A DNA stretch of 20,000 nt from IMG/VR virus record IMGVR_UViG_3300013005_004768, one strand, 5' to 3'. Origin of the DNA: an uncultured virus (IMG/VR IMGVR_UViG_3300013005_004768) (lineage: Duplodnaviria; Heunggongvirae; Uroviricota; Caudoviricetes). The position numbers and the translations under genes were made by a program. Within the stretch, counting starts at the first letter, position 1. Each line of letters opens with the position of its first letter. Under the pieces are notes generated by a model that made no database searches, was not told the DNA's origin, and saw only the letters and a program-made list of their open reading frames with translations. This document shows, piece after piece, positions 960 through 13,782 of the stretch.

Positions 960-1961
960 TTACAATACTTTCGCAGCTATTAAACATCCTTTTGACACTG
1001 AATGTAACGGATCGGCGGCATGCTTAACTTCTTTAATAGACAAAGGAAAATTATTTTCTGATAGTTTTTTCTTAAAATGTTCAATATAACCACCAGCTTG
1101 TGATGTTCCACCAGCAATGACTATTGTTAGTGGGTCTTTAAACTTTGGTAAAGCTTTATGATCTGTTAGTGCTGCTGTTAATTGTTTAGTAGTATAATCT
1201 ATTAAACGATCATAATATGACGATACAGCTGCTAATATAGGATTATCATTATGCTGACCAACATTAAAATTTCCACCCTCTTTCTCAGCCTGTACGACAC
1301 TATCCGGTTCCCCTGTGGCTACGGCGCTCATTCTATCTACCCAATCCCCAGATTTAGTTGTGGAAAATACAACAGTGGGTTCACCATTTAGCATTACACA
1401 AACATTAGTCATACCAGCACCACAGCTAATAGCTATACCAGTATAATCATTATCCGCTAACTCAGCATAGCATAAAGCTTCAGCTTCATTAATTGATCTA
1501 GCGTTATATCCACAGCTATCTAAAATAGTTTTGACTACATCTTCATGATATCCAACATCAAAATCTTCATCTTCTTGGTCTACTGGTTGAGCAGGAACAC
1601 AAAAAACGATCTTTTCAAGGGGCTCCGAAGATTGCCCGACTACTTCCTTTAATATAAAAGCTAAGACTCTTTTCGCATCTTTCTCTTTTGCAGAAACAAC
1701 TCCTTTGTACATTGGTCTTTTAGCGGTGTCGTTTCTCTCAATAGCTTTTTCAATAGCATCTTGTCCGAGGATAATAAAAGAACCGTCTGTATCTTTAATA
1801 AAGACTTTTCCAGCCAATCCCTTTTCTATCATCTTTGTTGCTACTGGAGTAGATGGCTTGATGATATAAAAGGCATCTCTAAAGTCTTTGTATTGTACTT
1901 TATCTCCTTTGTCCTCAGATAAAACAATATAGCTTGTTCCTACGTCAAGACCCCTAGCCAT
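960..1961 (-). CDS. Actin-fold ATPase (MreB/FtsA/ParM-like superfamily)
   Basis: Phosphate-1 GLDVGTS, connect-1 INEAEA, phosphate-2-like SCGAGMTN, adenosine IAGGTS, connect-2 ADPLHSVSKG; 333 aa. Confidence 0.85.
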   Translation of the reverse strand: MARGLDVGTSYIVLSEDKGDKVQYKDFRDAFYIIKPSTPVATKMIEKGLAGKVFIKDTDGSFIILGQDAIEKAIERNDTAKRPMYKGVVSAKEKDAKRVLAFILKEVVGQSSEPLEKIVFCVPAQPVDQEDEDFDVGYHEDVVKTILDSCGYNARSINEAEALCYAELADNDYTGIAISCGAGMTNVCVMLNGEPTVVFSTTKSGDWVDRMSAVATGEPDSVVQAEKEGGNFNVGQHNDNPILAAVSSYYDRLIDYTTKQLTAALTDHKALPKFKDPLTIVIAGGTSQAGGYIEHFKKKLSENNFPLSIKEVKHAADPLHSVSKGCLIAAKVL

Positions 1962-3275: not shown

Positions 3276-3692
3276 TCACATTCCTCCAAAAATTTTCAGA
3301 GCATCCTTCACTAACAATAAAGGATTATTCTGATTAGTAAGATCGTATACTTTATTTACCAAATCTACAGCTTCTTTGTTAGAAAAACCATAGTTTTCCA
3401 AAATTTTATATGCTTTTTTAAGATACTCAGGCTCCTCTTTCGTAACTATTTCAGATGACTTATTAGATTCTGTTCTAGGTTTTGTGGTCTTTTTTGAGAA
3501 TTGTGTTTTTATATTTGCTATCTGGCGTATCTTATAAACATTCCCGCAATCACATACAAGTTTAAAACCCTTCACTTGAACTTGATTCAAAAATAGCCAA
3601 TGTTCTGATTCGCACTCTGTATTTGTGCATTTATATTTAAACTGAGCATCTAGACTAATCGGTTTCAGGCTTTTGGTTTGATTTTGTATCAT
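3276..3692 (-). CDS. Zn-ribbon protein with a C-terminal RuvA domain III-like module
   Basis: N-terminal CTNTEC...CDCG (4 Cys), a Lys/Ser/Thr-rich linker, then KAYKILENYGFSNKEAVDLVNKV...NPLLLVKDALK, matching the RuvA C-terminal pattern (A..L..LG[YF]...EA...V...LI+.AL+). Stop is 3 nt before ruvB. Confidence 0.7.
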   Translation of the reverse strand: MIQNQTKSLKPISLDAQFKYKCTNTECESEHWLFLNQVQVKGFKLVCDCGNVYKIRQIANIKTQFSKKTTKPRTESNKSSEIVTKEEPEYLKKAYKILENYGFSNKEAVDLVNKVYDLTNQNNPLLLVKDALKIFGGM

Positions 3693-4134
3693 CTTCTTCT
3701 TTCACCCAAAAAATAAAATCGTTTTGATCACTATCGTACGCACTATCAAGAATTCCTTTATTAACCAAGGAATTTAATATATTACTAATCATTCTATTAT
3801 TCAGATCTTCTATAATAGTTTGAAGAAGTTTATCAGTTAAACAATATCTTACTTCTTTTGTTTTTTTATTTATCTGTTTCTTTGCGTGGTTTTTAATTAT
3901 AATAGCAGATTCATCATGGGTTAGTGTCTCATTCATCTCCTCTATTTCTTGTTTGCTCATTTCAGATATGGATGCCACCATAGAATCGTGTTCTACTTCT
4001 TTTATAGCTCCAAAAAATTTAAAAACTAATGATCTTGAATGGTCAACAAAGTCATCAAAATCATTTATAAAAAACCATTGTTCATTTTTCATTGAACTAG
4101 GGTTACTCCTTCGTACTTTGGAATCTCTGTCCAC
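3655..4134 (-). CDS. Hypothetical protein (start may be the internal Met of MKNEQW)
   Basis: ORF overlaps both neighbours in operon fashion; the C-terminal LNSLVNKGILDSAYD resembles a winged-helix end (weak). Confidence 0.7.
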   Translation of the reverse strand: MDRDSKVRRSNPSSMKNEQWFFINDFDDFVDHSRSLVFKFFGAIKEVEHDSMVASISEMSKQEIEEMNETLTHDESAIIIKNHAKKQINKKTKEVRYCLTDKLLQTIIEDLNNRMISNILNSLVNKGILDSAYDSDQNDFIFWVKEEDDTKSNQKPETD

Positions 4135-4596: not shown

Positions 4597-5007
4597 TCAG
4601 TTTAAAATATCAAACATACCATCATAATAATTCGGCTGTTGTAAAAAGTGAACAGCGTTTGCTATTAAATGATTTCTATACTCAGTATCTAATTTGTTGT
4701 GAATAAAATATTTTGTTTTGTAAATTGGTTCTTTGTAATGATTGTTCCCCAAATACAGGGAGTTTTTGAAGTTCCCTGATTTGGAGAAGTAATCATTCAC
4801 AGGTAACGAACCTTTAGGAAAGCTCGGGCCAATATACCATACGTTTGAAGGATGTTCAACTATTTCATTTAGAGTATCATATAACATTTTTCCCCAAGCA
4901 TCCCAAGCGTCGGGGTCAAACTTGAAATACTTTTTATAATGACTCTCTAAATTGTCCTGACTATCACCATAGTCATCGTAGTCATCATCTTCATAATCTT
5001 CGTGCAT
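4597..5007 (-). CDS. Hypothetical protein with an acidic N-terminus
   Basis: 136-aa ORF starting 3 nt after the primase stop. Confidence 0.7.
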   Translation of the reverse strand: MHEDYEDDDYDDYGDSQDNLESHYKKYFKFDPDAWDAWGKMLYDTLNEIVEHPSNVWYIGPSFPKGSLPVNDYFSKSGNFKNSLYLGNNHYKEPIYKTKYFIHNKLDTEYRNHLIANAVHFLQQPNYYDGMFDILN

Positions 5008-5010
5008 ATT

Positions 5011-6168
5011 TCACCCGATACAAAATTTATCACTAATCTTAGACGCTAGTTCTTTAGCAGCATTAGAAAGAAACCTGTTGTTGCTAAAGTAGAGGGGTGT
5101 TGAGACTTGATTAAGGAACTCCACGACCGTTTTTAAAAGCTTGGTCTGGGAACCGTCAAGATCTAAATCTTCGCCCCCAGCGTCAACAGGAAGCGGCTCA
5201 ATAGCATCTGTATCGTCCTCAGTAACAGGAGATACTGGAGTAGGATCACCATAAGCCTTGTTGAACATACCATGACCAGAATAGACATACTTTGTCTTGA
5301 TATCTTCTGTGCTGTTGGTATATGTGTTAAGGTTTAAAGACTTCATCTGATTTGCAATAGTTGTAGCAACATTAATTGCAACTGGAACTCCAGTGATGTC
5401 AGACTTTTTATAAGCCTTGGCATATTCTTTAAACCATTCGTCGCTAGTCTTATTAGCAACAATATTAACAACAGCAGAAACTCCATCAAGAGCCTCTTTA
5501 AGTTGTTCAATATTTATCGGATTACCAGTTGATCCAGACAAAATACTGGTAAAATAAGGTTGCTTTCCTTCCCAACCCTTCCTCCACCAAGTATAAGGGA
5601 TTCTGTAAATCTGATTGATTTTGATAGCTCGGGCATCACCACCAAAATGATTTACCAGTTTCTTTTGAATACCATTCCAATAAGTCTTATGAGGACTATT
5701 AGTATTTGGGTTTAGAATCCAATAGCACTGATAACCATTACGAGTATCAACAACCCAGCTTGGCTTTACTGGAAAGTTATTGATATAATTCAAGAATCCC
5801 CTTTTCTTCTGCATTACGACACTGGGCTTAAAATAGTTACCGTTATCATCTCGTCCAGCATCCATATCAACAAAACAAGCACGAATTCTACTAATAGCAT
5901 ATTGTTTACGTCCACCATTAACGTAGAAATAAGCATCAGCACCTTGGTTATCATTTGCAATAGCAACGGTGGTGAGATGATCTGTATGATTCATGCTACT
6001 GATCTTCTTGCGAGGATCACCATTGTAACAGAAAATCTGCTGACCACCAAAAGACTCAAAAAACTTATTCCTCAAAGTAATCTGATCTCTTGTTCCAATA
6101 GCACTATGAGTCTTATCAAACGGATTAAAAGCCAAAGTATCGCTAAACATTTGTTTTCCTTTTTCCAC
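5011..6168 (-). CDS. RepB-type DNA primase (archaeo-eukaryotic primase superfamily)
   Basis: AYFYVNGG, RACFVDMD (DxD), PSWVVDTRNGYQCYW, FGGD and QIYRIP are characteristic of the RepB primase domain. The start could be ATG at 6150. Confidence 0.8.
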   Translation of the reverse strand: MEKGKQMFSDTLAFNPFDKTHSAIGTRDQITLRNKFFESFGGQQIFCYNGDPRKKISSMNHTDHLTTVAIANDNQGADAYFYVNGGRKQYAISRIRACFVDMDAGRDDNGNYFKPSVVMQKKRGFLNYINNFPVKPSWVVDTRNGYQCYWILNPNTNSPHKTYWNGIQKKLVNHFGGDARAIKINQIYRIPYTWWRKGWEGKQPYFTSILSGSTGNPINIEQLKEALDGVSAVVNIVANKTSDEWFKEYAKAYKKSDITGVPVAINVATTIANQMKSLNLNTYTNSTEDIKTKYVYSGHGMFNKAYGDPTPVSPVTEDDTDAIEPLPVDAGGEDLDLDGSQTKLLKTVVEFLNQVSTPLYFSNNRFLSNAAKELASKISDKFCIG

Positions 6169-6228
6169 TTCCTACCTACATTTTTGATATTGGGATAGTA
6201 AACACTACCATCAAAAGCAATATCGTAA

Positions 6229-6309
6229 AAGATGGTAACGGAATCGAACCGTTATTGTAGGATAGTAAAAACTATATAGGTACTATCTTACAAGTTCCAA
6301 ACACCACCT
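6229..6309 (-). ncRNA. tRNA-like structured element (non-canonical)
   Basis: Acceptor-like stem AGGTGGT/ACCATCT, canonical T arm AACGG-TTCGATT-CCGTT, reduced D region GTTTGGAAC, and a 12-bp stem TTGTAAGATAGTA/TACTATCCTACAA in place of the anticodon arm. Confidence 0.6.
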
Positions 6310-6312
6310 TGA

Positions 6313-6888
6313 CTATTTACTAACTCCATATTTATTCTTGAGACTTTCCATTGTTCTATTAATTTTCACTTCGCTTTTTTTGGTAAATTTATCACTATCA
6401 GATAGTTCATAATGCAACTCTCTATGACATCTATTACAAAGCAGTTTACACTTTTTTATTTCTTGTAACAGTTTTTCAAAATTTGTATTAATTTCTCCTA
6501 TCGCATACTCTTTGATCGCAGGATCTAAATGATGAAAATCTAATGCCGATTGACACTTATTGTATCCACATTTTTCACATCTGTTGCCCAGTTGTTCTAT
6601 TAGAATTTTTTTCTTTGCTATTTTAATGATTTTGTTAGCGCATTTACTACAAGTTTTCATTGAGCTTTTTTTATCACAAATTTCACAGTTGGTTATACCT
6701 AATGCTTTTCTGTTTGTTTTATCGTGTGGTCTTAAGTTTTTAGTTAAGTACCCTAGTCGTTTTTTAGCCTCATGAATAGATGATTTAGAACATCCATATA
6801 ATTCGGCTAACTCATACGAGGTTTTACCTTCAAGTATATGCTGCTTGAATCTTTTCTTATCCTTGATAATTTCTTTAATAGTCATCAT
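6313..6888 (-). CDS. HNH endonuclease with N-terminal HTH and Zn-binding motifs (homing-endonuclease-like)
   Basis: HTH GKTSYELAELYGCSKSSIHEAKKRLG; CEIC...CSKC; CEKCGY...ALDFHHLDP...LLCNRCHRELH. Start placed at ATG 6888 because the upstream 57 nt form a hairpin. Confidence 0.85.
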   Translation of the reverse strand: MMTIKEIIKDKKRFKQHILEGKTSYELAELYGCSKSSIHEAKKRLGYLTKNLRPHDKTNRKALGITNCEICDKKSSMKTCSKCANKIIKIAKKKILIEQLGNRCEKCGYNKCQSALDFHHLDPAIKEYAIGEINTNFEKLLQEIKKCKLLCNRCHRELHYELSDSDKFTKKSEVKINRTMESLKNKYGVSK

Positions 6889-6891
6889 AAA

Positions 6892-6942
6892 CCCCCGGAG
6901 AATGAAAGTATACCTTTTAATACACCTTTCAAACTCCGAGGG
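6892..6942 (-). promoter_or_regulatory. RBS-occluding hairpin containing the GGTGTA motif
   Basis: Minus strand CCCTCGGAG-TT-TGAAAGGTGTATT-AAAA-GGTATACTTTCA-TT-CTCCGGGGG, ending 3 nt before ATG 6888. Confidence 0.65.
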
Positions 6943-6955
6943 CATGATTTATTTT

Positions 6956-7825
6956 TTAGAAATTATCCTCATCCTCTTCATCGTCAAAATCGTCCTCATA
7001 ATCATCTTCGTCAGAATCGTCAAATTGAGACCAATAATCTTCATCGGTCAAGTGATCATCATTATCTTCGTCATCATTATCATCATAGCTAAAATTTTCC
7101 GAATACAGAGGCTTAAGTAATTCTCCTGCATATTCAGCAACAACTTCATATCGACAAGTACGAAGTTTTTCATAATTGCAATCACTTGGGACACTGACTA
7201 CATCTTTCGGGTTAATCTTGACGATCACAATTCGATCTCCATTCTCAAGACTACCATACCCAGCAACATAGTTTAAAGCCCCGGCATGAAGTCCATTTGA
7301 ACAACCCCTACCTCTATCGTCATCAACTTTAGATCGTGTCATTTCGCAAACCTTACCAACACTATTGTCGAAAACACCACGATACTTATCCTTAAAATCT
7401 GAACGAACAGCTTTATAGGCCAAAAAATATCCATCGGAAGTTACAGCCAAATTCTCATGTTCCAAGAAATCATACAGTTCCTTCTGACTCTGCATACTTG
7501 GATTTTCCATGAGATTATTCAGGAAATTAACAAGGGGCTGAAACGGCAATCCCTTGCTCATAAACTCCAGAATACGCTTACTAATACTACCATGAACTTC
7601 CTCACCCTCGTAGAGAACCTGACCGTTCTTGATCTCCACAAGACCATCGCTAAAAGTAGCAACAGCCTTTTGAACATCAACAACTTCCAAGAGTTCCTCT
7701 GCCGTAGCAGTAGGAAGTCTTTCCAGAATCAACTTATAGTTGATATGATCCGGCAACACCTGATAACTCTGGTTGTTAAGAACCAGCGTCAAATTACCAT
7801 CCACAAACATAAACGGAACAGCCAT
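6956..7825 (-). CDS. rIIB: rIIB-like protein
   Basis: FLNNLMENPS...ELYDFL...DGYFLAYKAV...CSNGLH...VKINPKDVVSVPSD...KLRTCRYEVV is typical of rIIB; it follows rIIA and has an acidic tail. Confidence 0.9.
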   Translation of the reverse strand: MAVPFMFVDGNLTLVLNNQSYQVLPDHINYKLILERLPTATAEELLEVVDVQKAVATFSDGLVEIKNGQVLYEGEEVHGSISKRILEFMSKGLPFQPLVNFLNNLMENPSMQSQKELYDFLEHENLAVTSDGYFLAYKAVRSDFKDKYRGVFDNSVGKVCEMTRSKVDDDRGRGCSNGLHAGALNYVAGYGSLENGDRIVIVKINPKDVVSVPSDCNYEKLRTCRYEVVAEYAGELLKPLYSENFSYDDNDDEDNDDHLTDEDYWSQFDDSDEDDYEDDFDDEEDEDNF

Positions 7826-7871: not shown

Positions 7872-7899
7872 ATTTTACACTAATCGGCAAGCTTGTCAA
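7872..7899 (-). promoter_or_regulatory. Sigma70-like promoter for rIIB
   Basis: TTGACA-16 nt (contains TTGCCGAT)-TAAAAT in the rIIA-rIIB gap. Confidence 0.7.
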
Positions 7900-7920: not shown

Positions 7921-10605
7921 CTACTTGATCAAACTACTCAACTGAATCTTAAAAAGGTCAATATTCTCCTGACTCATCTGCTCAATCCAATCCTTGCTAG
8001 ACTTTCCATAATAGGAACTACGATCTTCAAGAATAGGATTCTGACTAGGCTTTAGGTCTGTCAGATTGCCGCTAACTTGATGAGTTCCCATCATATATTT
8101 CAGCATAGGATTCTTGTCTACTTCAGCCTTAATCTTCTCCCTAATTTCAGAGATTTTCCATCTCTTAAGATCTTCAGTAGAAGTTCCACGAATAATCTTG
8201 AGATAACCCTCTGCCTTGTCTTGATTAGTCACAGAATACAAACGAGTGACAATCATGTTTGTCAAGGTGTTATAGGCCAAATTAGCATTACGAATCTCTT
8301 TACTATCAACATCTTCAATCCCAGCCTCTTTCATAAGCTTAGAAATATGAGAAAGATATTCTGTTTGACTGAACTTAGTGATATTAAAAGGATGAATATG
8401 AACAGTATTAGCAAAGAACTCTGTTAGCATTGTTTTGTTCAAGCAATCAACAAGAGTCTTATTGCCAATAAACTTATCATAATCCAATCCAAAGATACTC
8501 AGAACATGAAACATAAACTGCTTATCGGTTGTTCCATACTGGCAATATCTATAGCCGCCAGTAGTCTTTTCTTCAGTTGCAAAATCTTTCTTGCAATATT
8601 CAACAAGCTTGTTGATAGAAGCAAGATTCTTAAAGTGCTTGTTAGCAACAACTTTAAGTTGACGCTTCAAGAAATCATTGAAGTTAACAAGATTATATCC
8701 GTCTTTCTCAAGCTTTTTAGCAAAAGCTGTTTTGATAGCATAAACCTTACTATCTCCAACCAAGTCCTTGACTATACTCTTGAGTTTATCATCACTAAGA
8801 GTAATAGCGATGTCATTAATCTCAGGATAACCAGACTCAGGCTCAGTCTTATAACGAAGCATAGGAACATACACAATCTCATCCTGTTCCAGAAAATCCT
8901 CTAGTTGTTCTTCTGAAAGAATTCTGAGACAAGTAGCATCATTATAAGGATTAGTAATCTGCTTACTGTCCTTATCATAACCGTGGATAAAGAATACATC
9001 TTGATCACTAACACTACCATTAGAATTTCTATTGTAAGACTTTCTTGGGCCAGAACTTTGTGTCAGATGTTTATAGTCTGAAACCTTGAGCAGATTTCCA
9101 GCCCCAACATCTTCGATCAGTTGATCAAAACCTTCTCCGCTTTTTGTATGATCCTTAGTGTCGATCATCAGATAAGCAAAGCAATCGTTTGCATTACAAT
9201 ATCTTGTAAGAATTTTCTTGGCACTTTCTTCACTAGCAACGTCGCAGACAAAGAAAGCCATCGTTCCCTTCTTTTTCTGATTATTCCAGTAATAGGAACC
9301 TTTACCAGTAAGAGTTTCATGATGGATTCTGTCTGTCAGAGCAACTTGGCGGCGAGAACGATAGCCAGCAGTCTTGTAATTAAAAACGTACAGACTCTTA
9401 CCGGCAGGAATTTTATATTCCAAGTCATTGCCAGAGTTGATAGGATGATCTTTACCCTTGGGATCAGTCCAAGTAGCACCAACACCCCAGCCGCCAGCCA
9501 ATTCATTCATAGCATAGTATGAAGTAATTGCTTCTACCTTGTTTTGGGCAGCTTGAATTTTCTTGGAGAATTCTTCCTTCATCTCCATGTAAATTTCTTG
9601 AGTCTTTTTACGCAGTGTCTTGATAACATCTTTAGTATACTGCAAACCTTCACGGCTAACATCCATTTCCAGTTCACCGATACCAAAATCAAGCTCAAGA
9701 TAAAGGCCGGAGTTCAGAATCTCTCCAACGAAACTCTTCCAAGAATCAATATCTGCTTTCTGGAAAGCCCTATTCCACTTCTGAATATGATCGGGCATCT
9801 CATCCTTCTCTTGACCAACAATCTGTGCGGTCTGAACAGGATAAGCGATATTGCCCATGATAGCTACGATACCACTATCAATTCGATGATAACCATTAGG
9901 GAAATAACTATTATCATTATTAAGTCGGCATACCCTCCAACCTTCACCACTAATGATGATGTTGGTATTACTATACTTATGATCTTGCAGATTATTTCCG
10001 ATACCACCTTCAAGGATGGGTTTCATGCGGAAATAGTGGAAGATTCTCTTAGCCTTGTCGGTAAACTCTTGGAAATCATGCTGCTTAACAGCGAAACTAA
10101 TTTCAAGACCATTAGGCTCAGACGTATCTGAAGTATTGAAAAGATTCAGAGTAGGCACTCCGCTCTCGTCAATCGCAGCAATATAGGTATACTTCTTACC
10201 GTTGTAATATGATGCCGTGGTGAAACTCTTGGTATACGCGAAGGGACTCTTAGACCCTAGACCAAGACAACCAACAAAATCATTACTATCATTCTTGTTG
10301 GACGCACCATAAGTTGTATACAAGTCCTCCATATCGGCCTGACTAAGACCAGTGCCATAATCTCTGACTACGAAGGTAGGATTGGCAGCGGTAGGCAAAG
10401 TCACCTTAAAGGGATTCTTATTCCCGGCAGAGATATGACTATCATAAGCATTAGTAGAAAGCTCACGAATCGCAGCCATAACCTTATCAGAGTAAAGAGA
10501 GTCTGAAAGGATTTTAAACATTTTGCTCGTCTGAGCAATATTGAACTGATTCCTGCTTGCAACTCCAACGCTGTGAGTCTCAATCGTCCTATCTGCCAAC
10601 TTCAT
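7921..10605 (-). CDS. rIIA: rIIA-like protein (N-terminal GHKL/Hsp90-type ATPase domain)
   Basis: LYSDKVMAAIRELSTNAYDSH, VRDYGTGLS, YGASNK, GCLGLGSKSPFAY, SREGLQY; 894 aa; directly upstream of rIIB. Confidence 0.9.
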   Translation of the reverse strand: MKLADRTIETHSVGVASRNQFNIAQTSKMFKILSDSLYSDKVMAAIRELSTNAYDSHISAGNKNPFKVTLPTAANPTFVVRDYGTGLSQADMEDLYTTYGASNKNDSNDFVGCLGLGSKSPFAYTKSFTTASYYNGKKYTYIAAIDESGVPTLNLFNTSDTSEPNGLEISFAVKQHDFQEFTDKAKRIFHYFRMKPILEGGIGNNLQDHKYSNTNIIISGEGWRVCRLNNDNSYFPNGYHRIDSGIVAIMGNIAYPVQTAQIVGQEKDEMPDHIQKWNRAFQKADIDSWKSFVGEILNSGLYLELDFGIGELEMDVSREGLQYTKDVIKTLRKKTQEIYMEMKEEFSKKIQAAQNKVEAITSYYAMNELAGGWGVGATWTDPKGKDHPINSGNDLEYKIPAGKSLYVFNYKTAGYRSRRQVALTDRIHHETLTGKGSYYWNNQKKKGTMAFFVCDVASEESAKKILTRYCNANDCFAYLMIDTKDHTKSGEGFDQLIEDVGAGNLLKVSDYKHLTQSSGPRKSYNRNSNGSVSDQDVFFIHGYDKDSKQITNPYNDATCLRILSEEQLEDFLEQDEIVYVPMLRYKTEPESGYPEINDIAITLSDDKLKSIVKDLVGDSKVYAIKTAFAKKLEKDGYNLVNFNDFLKRQLKVVANKHFKNLASINKLVEYCKKDFATEEKTTGGYRYCQYGTTDKQFMFHVLSIFGLDYDKFIGNKTLVDCLNKTMLTEFFANTVHIHPFNITKFSQTEYLSHISKLMKEAGIEDVDSKEIRNANLAYNTLTNMIVTRLYSVTNQDKAEGYLKIIRGTSTEDLKRWKISEIREKIKAEVDKNPMLKYMMGTHQVSGNLTDLKPSQNPILEDRSSYYGKSSKDWIEQMSQENIDLFKIQLSSLIK

Positions 10606-13507: not shown

Positions 13508-13782
13508 TAGGAGCGGTGAGAATCGAACTCACACTGGATGGATTTTCTTGCCACTATAGTTTTCACTACCATTTCTGTTTGTGGTCTGGACTTTATCTTA
13601 ACCATAACTTTCGTTTTAGGTTCCTGCCGTCAAGTCTCTACACCTTCATAATATTTCTATTAAGCTTGGCTCGGTATTAGCAGTTAAGCCTCCACCGAAT
13701 TTGACAGGTTCTACATCAAAGATTTCTCTTTAAGCACTCAAATTGTATAAGTCCATTGTCTCTGCCGTTGGACTACGCTCCC
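13508..13782 (-). tRNA. trnL: tRNA-Leu(UAA), intron-containing (exons 13782-13749 and 13546-13508)
   Basis: Spliced sequence GGGAGCG TA GTCCAACGGCAGAGAC A ATGGA CTT^AAAA TCCAT CCAGT GTGAG TTCGATT CTCAC CGCTCCT A: 73 nt, anticodon UAA, discriminator A, CCA not encoded. Confidence 0.92.
13547..13748 (-). mobile_element. Group I self-splicing intron (IC3/trnL-type), 202 nt, no ORF
   Basis: Inserted after the first anticodon U. P1 ACTT/GAGT with U.G at the splice site; P AAATTCGGTGGA, Q AATACCGAGC, R GTGTAGAGACTTGACG, S AAGATAAAGTCC; ends in G. Confidence 0.9.

Follow-up and report, generated by a model that had tools for sequence, protein, structure and literature searches.

A tRNA-like element at the 3′ end of rIIB in uncultured lake phages, a candidate signal for host RNase P and RNase Z

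We describe a tRNA-like element (TLE), real and under selection, that is carried by a group of uncultured lake phages. It belongs to a new structured-RNA family absent from Rfam 15, which comprises at least 60 distinct sequences with very clean covariation. The structure of the element, its selection, its position and its independence from the neighboring HNH endonuclease and primase genes were observed in comparisons of viral genomes, and what selection retains is the upper half of the tRNA L shape. We give about an even chance to the reading that the element is a cis signal at which host RNase P and RNase Z would cleave, separating the rII message from the message downstream.

Results

Location and structure of the element

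The 20-kb stretch of DNA analyzed here (the window) comes from a 90,490-base IMG/VR virus record that is ~65% complete, and every gene in it lies on the minus strand. In the direction of transcription, rIIA (7921-10605; PHROG profile, E 2e-112) is followed by rIIB (6956-7825; phrog_609, E 3e-72), an HNH endonuclease gene (6313-6945; PHROG HNH families, E 7e-20), the TLE and a gene for an AEP-type primase(-polymerase) (5011-6150, ATG at 6150-6148), the last recognized by weak PHROG matches and a fold match. The gap between rIIA and rIIB holds a near-consensus sigma-70-type promoter (TTGACA, 16 nt, TAAAAT; 11/12; 7872-7899, minus strand), and this putative promoter would start a transcript through rIIB, HNH and the TLE. 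Further downstream, a 333-aa protein encoded at 960-1961 (minus strand) matches the Pfam family Volactin from end to end (PF25216, E 5.7e-66) and MreB weakly; it is a phage-encoded actin-like protein.

As delimited by sequence and covariation, the TLE occupies 81 nt on the minus strand (6229-6309) and consists of an acceptor stem, a mini D hairpin, a lineage-specific long arm, a T arm and a discriminator U. The 5′ strand of the acceptor stem, AGGTGGT (6303-6309), pairs with ACCATCT (6236-6230) through A-U, G-C, G.U, U-A, G-C, G-C and U-A in that order. This 7-bp stem is stacked, as in a tRNA, on the perfect 5-bp stem of the T arm (AACGG-TTCGATT-CCGTT, 6237-6253), which has a UUCRANY-type loop. 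Both the acceptor stem with its G.U third pair and the perfect T arm had been pointed out in an initial annotation of this DNA, and both are present. Its statement that a normal D arm is lacking holds for the length of the D region, which is 9 nt, but a reduced D hairpin (GTT-TGG-AAC, 6294-6302) is conserved with a covarying stem, and its loop has the GG of a D loop. The window TLE has no anticodon arm of a 5-bp stem and 7-nt loop. In its place stands the long arm (6255-6293), in which 6293-6281 pair with 6267-6255 to give 12 bp and one A.C mismatch; the 13-nt loop (6268-6280) contains CTATATAG, in agreement with the 12-bp stem and palindromic loop described earlier. Also as described, the TLE begins 3 nt past the HNH stop codon (TAG, 6315-6313) and encodes no CCA: the 3′ acceptor strand (6230-6236) and the discriminator (6229) are followed by TTT. 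CCA is likewise unencoded in the phage's own tRNA genes (6/6 seen). A CCA-adding enzyme was looked for in the 90-kb record (~65% complete) and not found.

Folded on its own, the sequence stands out only slightly (MFE −20.5 kcal/mol, z −2.36, 5/200 shuffles as stable) and the MFE fold lacks the T arm, so that the case for the TLE rests on comparative data. A repeat, TACTATCC, found in the long arm and in the downstream hairpin HP2 (see below), was considered as a cross-pairing or switch sequence and dropped, as its two copies compare with 0.6 expected (26/200 shuffles reach two) and no covariation links the two stems. An internal sigma-70-like promoter (TTGGAA, 18 nt, TATAGT, 6300-6271) matches the consensus at 9/12 positions; shuffled sequences are as rich in such motifs (8 found in a 9/12 motif scan against 8.6 expected) and other lineages lack this one, so the chance that it could serve as a promoter is remote.

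Standard RNA detectors do not recognize the element. ARAGORN called no tRNA or tmRNA gene in the window, and at default settings, with or without the intron option, it made no call in the de-duplicated upstream regions of the best 80 of 183 related loci; lowering its threshold to 80% produced 55 mutually inconsistent calls that were discarded as noise. The Rfam tRNA model (RF00005) scored the window TLE at 14.1 bits (E 3.5, threshold 29) with a different and poor alignment. No tmRNA model reached threshold, the best being a partial match of 24.3 bits against a required 70, and Y RNA and YrlA models had no match in the window at the gathering threshold or at E ≤10. The remaining Rfam families did not match the window TLE. 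Comparison with ARAGORN and Rfam had been suggested in the initial annotation, and the outcome is that no tRNA, tmRNA or Y RNA model reached threshold. The same results give no support to the mini-tmRNA offered there as one option: the 81 nt hold neither the tag ORF nor the pseudoknots of a tmRNA, ARAGORN was negative and the tmRNA models stayed below threshold.

Other tRNA-related sequences occur in the same record, which has eight ordinary tRNA genes elsewhere. An intron-split tRNA gene that ARAGORN misses lies at 13508-13782 (minus strand). Its 5′ exon comprises the acceptor strand GGGAGCG, the D arm and the anticodon stem and loop with anticodon TAT (Ile, standard table), and its 3′ exon comprises the anticodon-stem strand TCCAT, the T arm GTGAG-TTCGATT-CTCAC and the acceptor strand CGCTCCT; the interruption is an Rfam group I intron (13565-13758, 56.9 bits) that sits in the anticodon loop. 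Beyond the window, in the tRNA cluster, a custom scan found a second non-canonical tRNA-like sequence (G000:C1, ~86640-86725, minus strand). Its 7-bp acceptor stem is perfect (GTGTGTG/CACACAC), its D-like hairpin has GG in the loop and its T arm reads GTCGG-TTCAAAT-CCGAC; the middle region is odd, with a loop of ~20 nt. This sequence is called by neither ARAGORN nor the Rfam tRNA model.

Covariation among relatives

Relatives were collected with the primase protein, a search independent of the TLE that returned 183 loci, of which the best 80 (primase identity 58-100%) were kept. The T-loop motif was present 74-112 nt upstream of the primase start in 80/80 of these loci (best 80 of 183). This is the unbiased figure for the T loop; the sequence TTCGATT also occurs in 60/60 unique TLEs, a count for which both pattern scans were anchored on the motif. 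An exact 24-mer spanning the T arm and the 3′ acceptor strand was found in 55 IMG/VR stretches.

Applied to 38 close relatives (37 distinct), the hand-drawn structure had 99.9% of cells paired, against 33-62% when partners were slid, and double changes were seen at 7/42 pairs among the 37 distinct sequences. A covariance model built from this alignment gave 60 matches among 100 pattern-scan loci; the window TLE region (6182-6316) scores 164.2 bits with covariance model R1. In the wider alignment of 75 matches (66 distinct), which was fitted to the covariance model and is hence biased towards the structure, 98.2% of cells were paired and 33/42 pairs showed compensatory changes, compared with 37-55% pairing in slid controls; the observed pairing values of these 66 sequences were reached by 0/500 shuffles. 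Family-wide, compensatory changes occurred at 7/7 acceptor pairs, 3/3 D-hairpin pairs and 4/5 T-stem pairs. RNAalifold, run de novo on the 66-sequence alignment, recovered the acceptor stem, the D hairpin, the T arm and both HP2 helices and missed the long arm; 21 of its 27 predicted pairs had compensatory changes.

Furthermore, 243 of 2531 cells were G.U or U.G and 11 were A.C or C.A, an excess which indicates that the fold is selected on the gene-sense strand. Mean identity among close relatives was 93.5% for the TLE versus 81% for the primase coding sequence (68% at third codon positions). The window's own lineage strongly conserves the long arm with its loop, and among close relatives the arm shows one full compensatory pair (U-A 18 / C-G 19) and several G.U changes. 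Covariation of homologues was the point on which the initial annotation had staked its interpretation, and the homologues do covary, at 33/42 pairs. Its proposal of a functional tRNA mimic is supported: the pairing is intact and is kept by compensatory changes, which contradicts a decayed tRNA. In a relative of the window (L193 / L136), a second T-arm-like hairpin with loop TTCGATT lies ~50 nt upstream of the T arm of the TLE, and this arrangement may be two tRNA-like units in tandem.

Among deposited phages, megablast with 5900-6700 found no close relative and the primase protein matched a single record weakly. Four distant phages with rIIB at 39-43% identity (Xoo-sp13, PA5oct, Mwe-JY26 and LR756511) have no tRNA after rIIB, and the best TLE-model match in them was an unconvincing 12.9 bits (E 0.096). 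On these searches the TLE is therefore confined to the uncultured clade.

Conserved core and variable middle

An element parser yielded 60 unique TLEs of 50-106 nt in length, with two unreliable rows (L182, the one failure among 66 distinct sequences, and L264, with a wrong upstream start). These elements include 20 different T stems and 30 acceptor pairings. The D hairpin has 3-4 bp and a TGG, TGGT, TGGG, TGGC or TGGA loop in 56/60, and the tail begins with TTT in 47/60. The anticodon-arm region of the 60 unique TLEs spans 7-61 nt and varies in shape by lineage, from 7-13 unpaired bases through a 3-bp stem with a GNRA-type loop and a 6-bp hairpin to the 12-bp arm of the window and a longer branched arm. 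With no anticodon retained, the RNA cannot decode.

The G3.U70 pair is the alanine identity element of tRNA. At the third acceptor pair, 35 of the 37 close relatives have G.U (one has A-U, one G-C), and the 60 unique TLEs divide into 25 with G.U, 17 with A-U, 12 with G-C and six with a non-standard pair. The alanine identity associated with this pair is not a family trait, as other lineages have A-U or G-C. The elbow of a tRNA arises where the GG of the D loop docks on the T loop, and RNase P, RNase Z and the CCA-adding enzyme recognize the 7-bp acceptor stem stacked on the 5-bp T stem together with this elbow.

On the Rfam tRNA model the top relatives scored 26.4 and 25.5 bits, below the threshold of 29, and these two lineages retain a 4-bp D arm and an anticodon-like stem of 5-6 bp. 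With lineages lying just under the tRNA threshold, the family, to judge by these sequences, evidently descends from a tRNA gene. In other viral contigs (L263, L270, L274, L288, L296 and L298), apparent real tRNAs with anticodon loops and encoded CCA share with many TLEs an unusually small D arm (4-5 bp stem, loop TGGN), which makes the small D arm a natural tRNA variant in some phages.

Linkage to rIIB

An HNH homologue was found in only 7/80 loci (best 80 of 183), all of them 100% identical to the window. When the window is compared with an HNH-less relative (99% primase identity), similarity ends near 6971 and restarts at 6319, which identifies the HNH gene as a recent ~650-bp insertion between the rIIB end and the TLE. 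A 75%-identical HNH gene occupies the same site in locus L279, where the TLE is of a different structural type and the primase is 53% identical, and HNH relatives adjoin tRNA-Phe and tRNA-Lys genes in Klebsiella and Raoultella phages. Given its position beside different TLE types and beside tRNA genes, the HNH protein looks like a homing endonuclease with tRNA-like DNA as its target. An insertion present in so few loci does not fit the earlier idea that the TLE is an RNA partner of the HNH protein.

The constant upstream neighbor of the TLE is rIIB, which precedes it in 78/80 primase loci (best 80 of 183). A scan for the D hairpin and T loop returned 40 loci, made up of 27 members of the TLE family and 13 other tRNAs or tRNA-like sequences. 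Directly upstream of the 27 family members lay rIIB in 25, HNH in one and a flank too short to judge in one; downstream, 20 had HP2 and primase and seven had neither. Five records with a TLE (G001-G005, one of 105 kb) had no primase match, and in 5/5 of these rIIB (76-82% identity) ends just before the TLE. The gene after their TLE is a relative of window ORF 4597-5007, followed further downstream by relatives of ORFs 3655-4134 and 3276-3692 and of the RuvB-like gene. HP2 and the primase are thus a cassette that is present or absent, and the TLE stays with the 3′ end of rIIB. The location between HNH and primase given in the initial annotation is true of this genome, but the stable neighbor elsewhere is rIIB; of the two linkages it had raised, to HNH or to primase, neither is general (HNH in 7/80 of the best 80 of 183 loci, primase missing from 7/27).

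The TLE starts 3-17 nt past the upstream stop codon in 74/80 loci and 36-41 nt past it in six (best 80 of 183), and it lies on the same strand as the genes and ends a few bases ahead of the next gene's ribosome site or of HP2.

The primase gene and its leader hairpin

The product of the coding sequence 6150-5011 has conserved DxD and RVPYT-like motifs. Its predicted fold is of low confidence (mean pLDDT 52.7, core 60-90) and matches the AEP domain of cyanophage S-2L PrimPol (E 2e-5) and the primase RepB′ (E 5e-5); on this predicted model we accept the protein as a primase at fold level. The 5′ leader of the gene contains the second conserved hairpin, HP2 (6186-6224, minus strand), with covarying helices that are ~99% paired. 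An outer stem of 7 bp and an inner stem of 8 bp are separated by an asymmetric internal loop, which has 5 nt in its 5′ strand and a single invariant C in its 3′ strand, the flanks UGAU / AUCCC are conserved, and family-wide the two helices have 4 and 5 compensatory pairs. HP2 matched no Rfam family and occurs solely where the primase gene occurs. The hairpin probably serves the primase message as a leader element, such as a 5′ stabilizer or an operator, and it could conceivably be a single-strand initiation hairpin for the RepB′-like primase.

Discussion

A candidate processing signal

Processing by RNase P or RNase Z was one of the functions listed in the initial annotation, and it is the one that we prefer, at the even chance given above. 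We infer transcription through the TLE, the enzymes and the cleavage sites. A message starting from rIIB (here from rIIB and the inserted HNH gene) would run through the TLE into the next gene, and the GG of the D hairpin would dock on the T loop to form an elbow. Host RNase P would cut at the 5′ end, between 6310 and 6309, and an RNase Z-type 3′ tRNA endonuclease would cut after the discriminator at 6229. The rII and downstream messages would then be separated and could have separate fates, with the primase message in the window starting a few bases before HP2, and a small tRNA-like RNA would be released, to which the host could add CCA. With a gap of only 3-17 nt from the stop codon to the TLE, the 5′ strand of the element would lie under a ribosome that is terminating, and folding and cutting may be coupled to upstream translation.

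The covarying acceptor stem, D hairpin and T stem, together with the hypervariable anticodon region, support the reading of a tRNA top half by processing enzymes. The position of the TLE suits punctuation: it is on the same strand, directly past a stop codon and before the next ribosome site or HP2. The missing CCA is no objection, since the phage's own tRNA genes also lack an encoded CCA and their transcripts need endonucleolytic 3′ processing and CCA addition anyway.

Some observations sit less well with a processing signal. The A at position −1 can pair with U73 in most variants, giving an acceptor helix of at least 8 bp, which could shift or weaken RNase P cleavage. The 90-kb record has a TLE-like element at one gene junction only, so the TLE is no general punctuation system. 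Simple punctuation also leaves unexplained the conservation of the long arm within the window's lineage. Two lake metatranscriptomes (shares 0.10 and 0.09) contributed one contig of 151 nt (6056-6206) and one of 181 nt (6712-6892), both identical to the window, neither overlapping the TLE and neither showing RNA ends.

A released RNA with a function of its own would be expected to show this conservation as well. In that case the small RNA would be the product: it would act in trans as a stable mimic of a tRNA's top half, for example by soaking up or recruiting a host factor that reads the acceptor or elbow (a defense toxin directed at tRNA 3′ ends, the CCA-adding enzyme or a modification enzyme are proposed targets) or by serving as a scaffold similar to Y RNA. 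We hold this to be a tentative possibility, somewhat on the unlikely side. It shares the conserved core with the processing signal, conservation of the TLE exceeds that of coding sequence, the TLE is strictly tied to the rII locus and to no single downstream gene, and lineage-specific yet well-conserved arms could bring extra functions. The tRNA-like domains of bacterial and phage Y RNAs are, according to PMC4201824, processed and modified as tRNAs. However, the TLE has no recognizable promoter or terminator of its own (the internal promoter-like matches being no more frequent than the 8.6 expected), the arm that should confer specificity is hypervariable or absent, and the 90-kb record (~65% complete) contains no Ro/TROVE gene. 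A decoy role would be a more specific form of the same idea. Here the TLE would belong to an rII counter-defense locus and, once excised by host tRNA enzymes, act as a CCA-tailed top-half tRNA that occupies or diverts a host factor attacking or sensing the acceptor end or elbow, with nucleotidyltransferase-type abortive-infection toxins or other defenses directed at tRNA ends as candidate targets. The strict linkage of TLE and rIIB would then reflect shared function; we regard this version as distinctly improbable.

It is rather improbable that the TLE is instead a 3′-end element of the rII transcript, either a terminator or a 3′ structure of acceptor helix and U-rich tail that protects from exonucleases. 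Such an element would account for a start always a few bases past the upstream stop codon, most variants have the U-rich tail, the A-rich leader lets the helix extend, and a consensus scan flags the T arm and CCATCTTTTA as terminator-like. Yet such sites are about as frequent in shuffled sequence (1 found, 0.7 expected), only 3-5 U follow the helix, and a terminator could do without an invariant T loop and without a D hairpin that bears GG. In the primase-less relatives the next ribosome site is ~5-15 nt on, without a promoter-sized gap, which suggests read-through. A feature acting at the level of DNA, be it a homing target of HNH, a hot spot for recombination or a site at which the RepB′-like primase initiates on a single strand, is very unlikely. 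An HNH gene does occupy the site in the window, one of 75% identity occupies it beside a TLE of another type in L279, relatives of the HNH lie beside tRNA genes, and the primase fold resembles RepB′, which was solved with hairpin initiator DNA. Compensatory changes, with G.U tolerated in the sense strand alone, indicate a single strand that folds rather than a duplex, 73/80 loci (best 80 of 183) have no HNH, seven TLE loci have no primase, the primase travels with HP2 and not with the TLE, and the T loop and the D-loop GG are tRNA features of RNA type. A functionless decaying pseudo-tRNA or integration-site fragment, finally, is scarcely credible. Descent from a tRNA is plain and some relatives reach 25-26 bits on the tRNA model, but 33/42 pairs are compensatory with 98.2% of cells paired, conservation exceeds that of coding sequence, and both acceptor strands are present and covary. 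An exact search of 185,579 bacterial and archaeal representative genomes with a 21-mer of the T arm and acceptor strand gave no hit, and thus no support for a copied host tRNA 3′ end (attachment site).

If the processing reading holds, the TLE would be a signal of the t-element type in a bacteriophage, one that borrows host RNase P and RNase Z to cut a polycistronic message. Its natural variants show what a tRNA can lose with selection still acting on the top half. There is also a caution for annotation, in that tRNA finders overlook the TLE and the adjoining HNH gene is a late arrival and not a partner.

Comparison with known tRNA-like systems

Cutting at t-elements is a principle known from organelles and put to engineering use in archaea. 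The closest analogue of the TLE is the plant-mitochondrial t-element. According to PMC1920247 and PMC5499578, t-elements are degenerate tRNAs that mimic the acceptor and T arm and keep a conserved T loop, and in which the D arm is degenerate or the anticodon arm missing. Located beside coding regions, they direct cuts by RNase P and RNase Z from which mRNA ends arise, and the excised RNAs gain non-encoded C or CCA. The TLE has the structure that these texts use to define t-elements (PMC1920247, PMC5499578). Its GGTTCGATTCC fits the motif GGTTCRANYCC given there for t-element searches, and like the t-elements it is embedded in what would be an mRNA precursor right beside coding regions. The settings differ, organelle as opposed to phage, without sequence homology, so that the TLE is an analogue and not a relative. 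Cleavage of t-elements was mapped experimentally according to the same papers, whereas cleavage of the TLE is conjectural, and the TLE is one conserved locus with strong covariation across many genomes. Engineered t-elements have also been used in Haloferax to release RNAs via RNase P and RNase Z (PMC6546412).

Bacterial Y RNAs offer a second comparison. YrlA of M. smegmatis, with a 7-bp acceptor stem, is reported in PMC4201824 to be an RNase P substrate that is also given CCA, and its tRNA-like domain as presented there resembles the TLE in being non-decoding and in having a T arm, D-loop features and an acceptor-like stem. In the TLE, however, the 5′ and 3′ ends form an acceptor stem and not a Ro-binding helix, the GNCGAA-type motif mentioned in that text (PMC4201824) is missing, and there is neither a Ro60/TROVE gene in the record (~65% complete) nor a match to the Rfam Y RNA and YrlA models. 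The tRNA-like domain of tmRNA likewise has an acceptor stem, a T arm and a reduced D region, and the window's lineage shares its G3.U70 pair. The TLE differs from it in total length (50-106 nt), in having no tag frame or pseudoknots and in not conserving G3.U70 across the family. The mascRNA and menRNA of MALAT1 and NEAT1 are tRNA-like structures released enzymatically from a longer transcript (PMC9777231). Unlike the TLE, they belong to eukaryotic nuclear lncRNAs, are unrelated in sequence and lie outside operon gene junctions.

Ordinary phage tRNAs share the acceptor and T-arm geometry of the TLE and, in this phage, the unencoded CCA, and apparent tRNAs in other viral contigs have the 4-bp/4-nt D hairpin AGTC-TGGN-GACT of many TLEs. 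The TLE departs from them in having no 5-bp anticodon stem with a 7-nt loop, in scoring below threshold in Rfam and in going uncalled by ARAGORN. Our search of the openly available literature found no description of a phage element of this type. The TLE is of a known kind, that of tRNA-like processing signals and mimics, and the novelty lies in its occurrence in a phage, in the family as such and in the natural series of anticodon-arm losses that this family presents.
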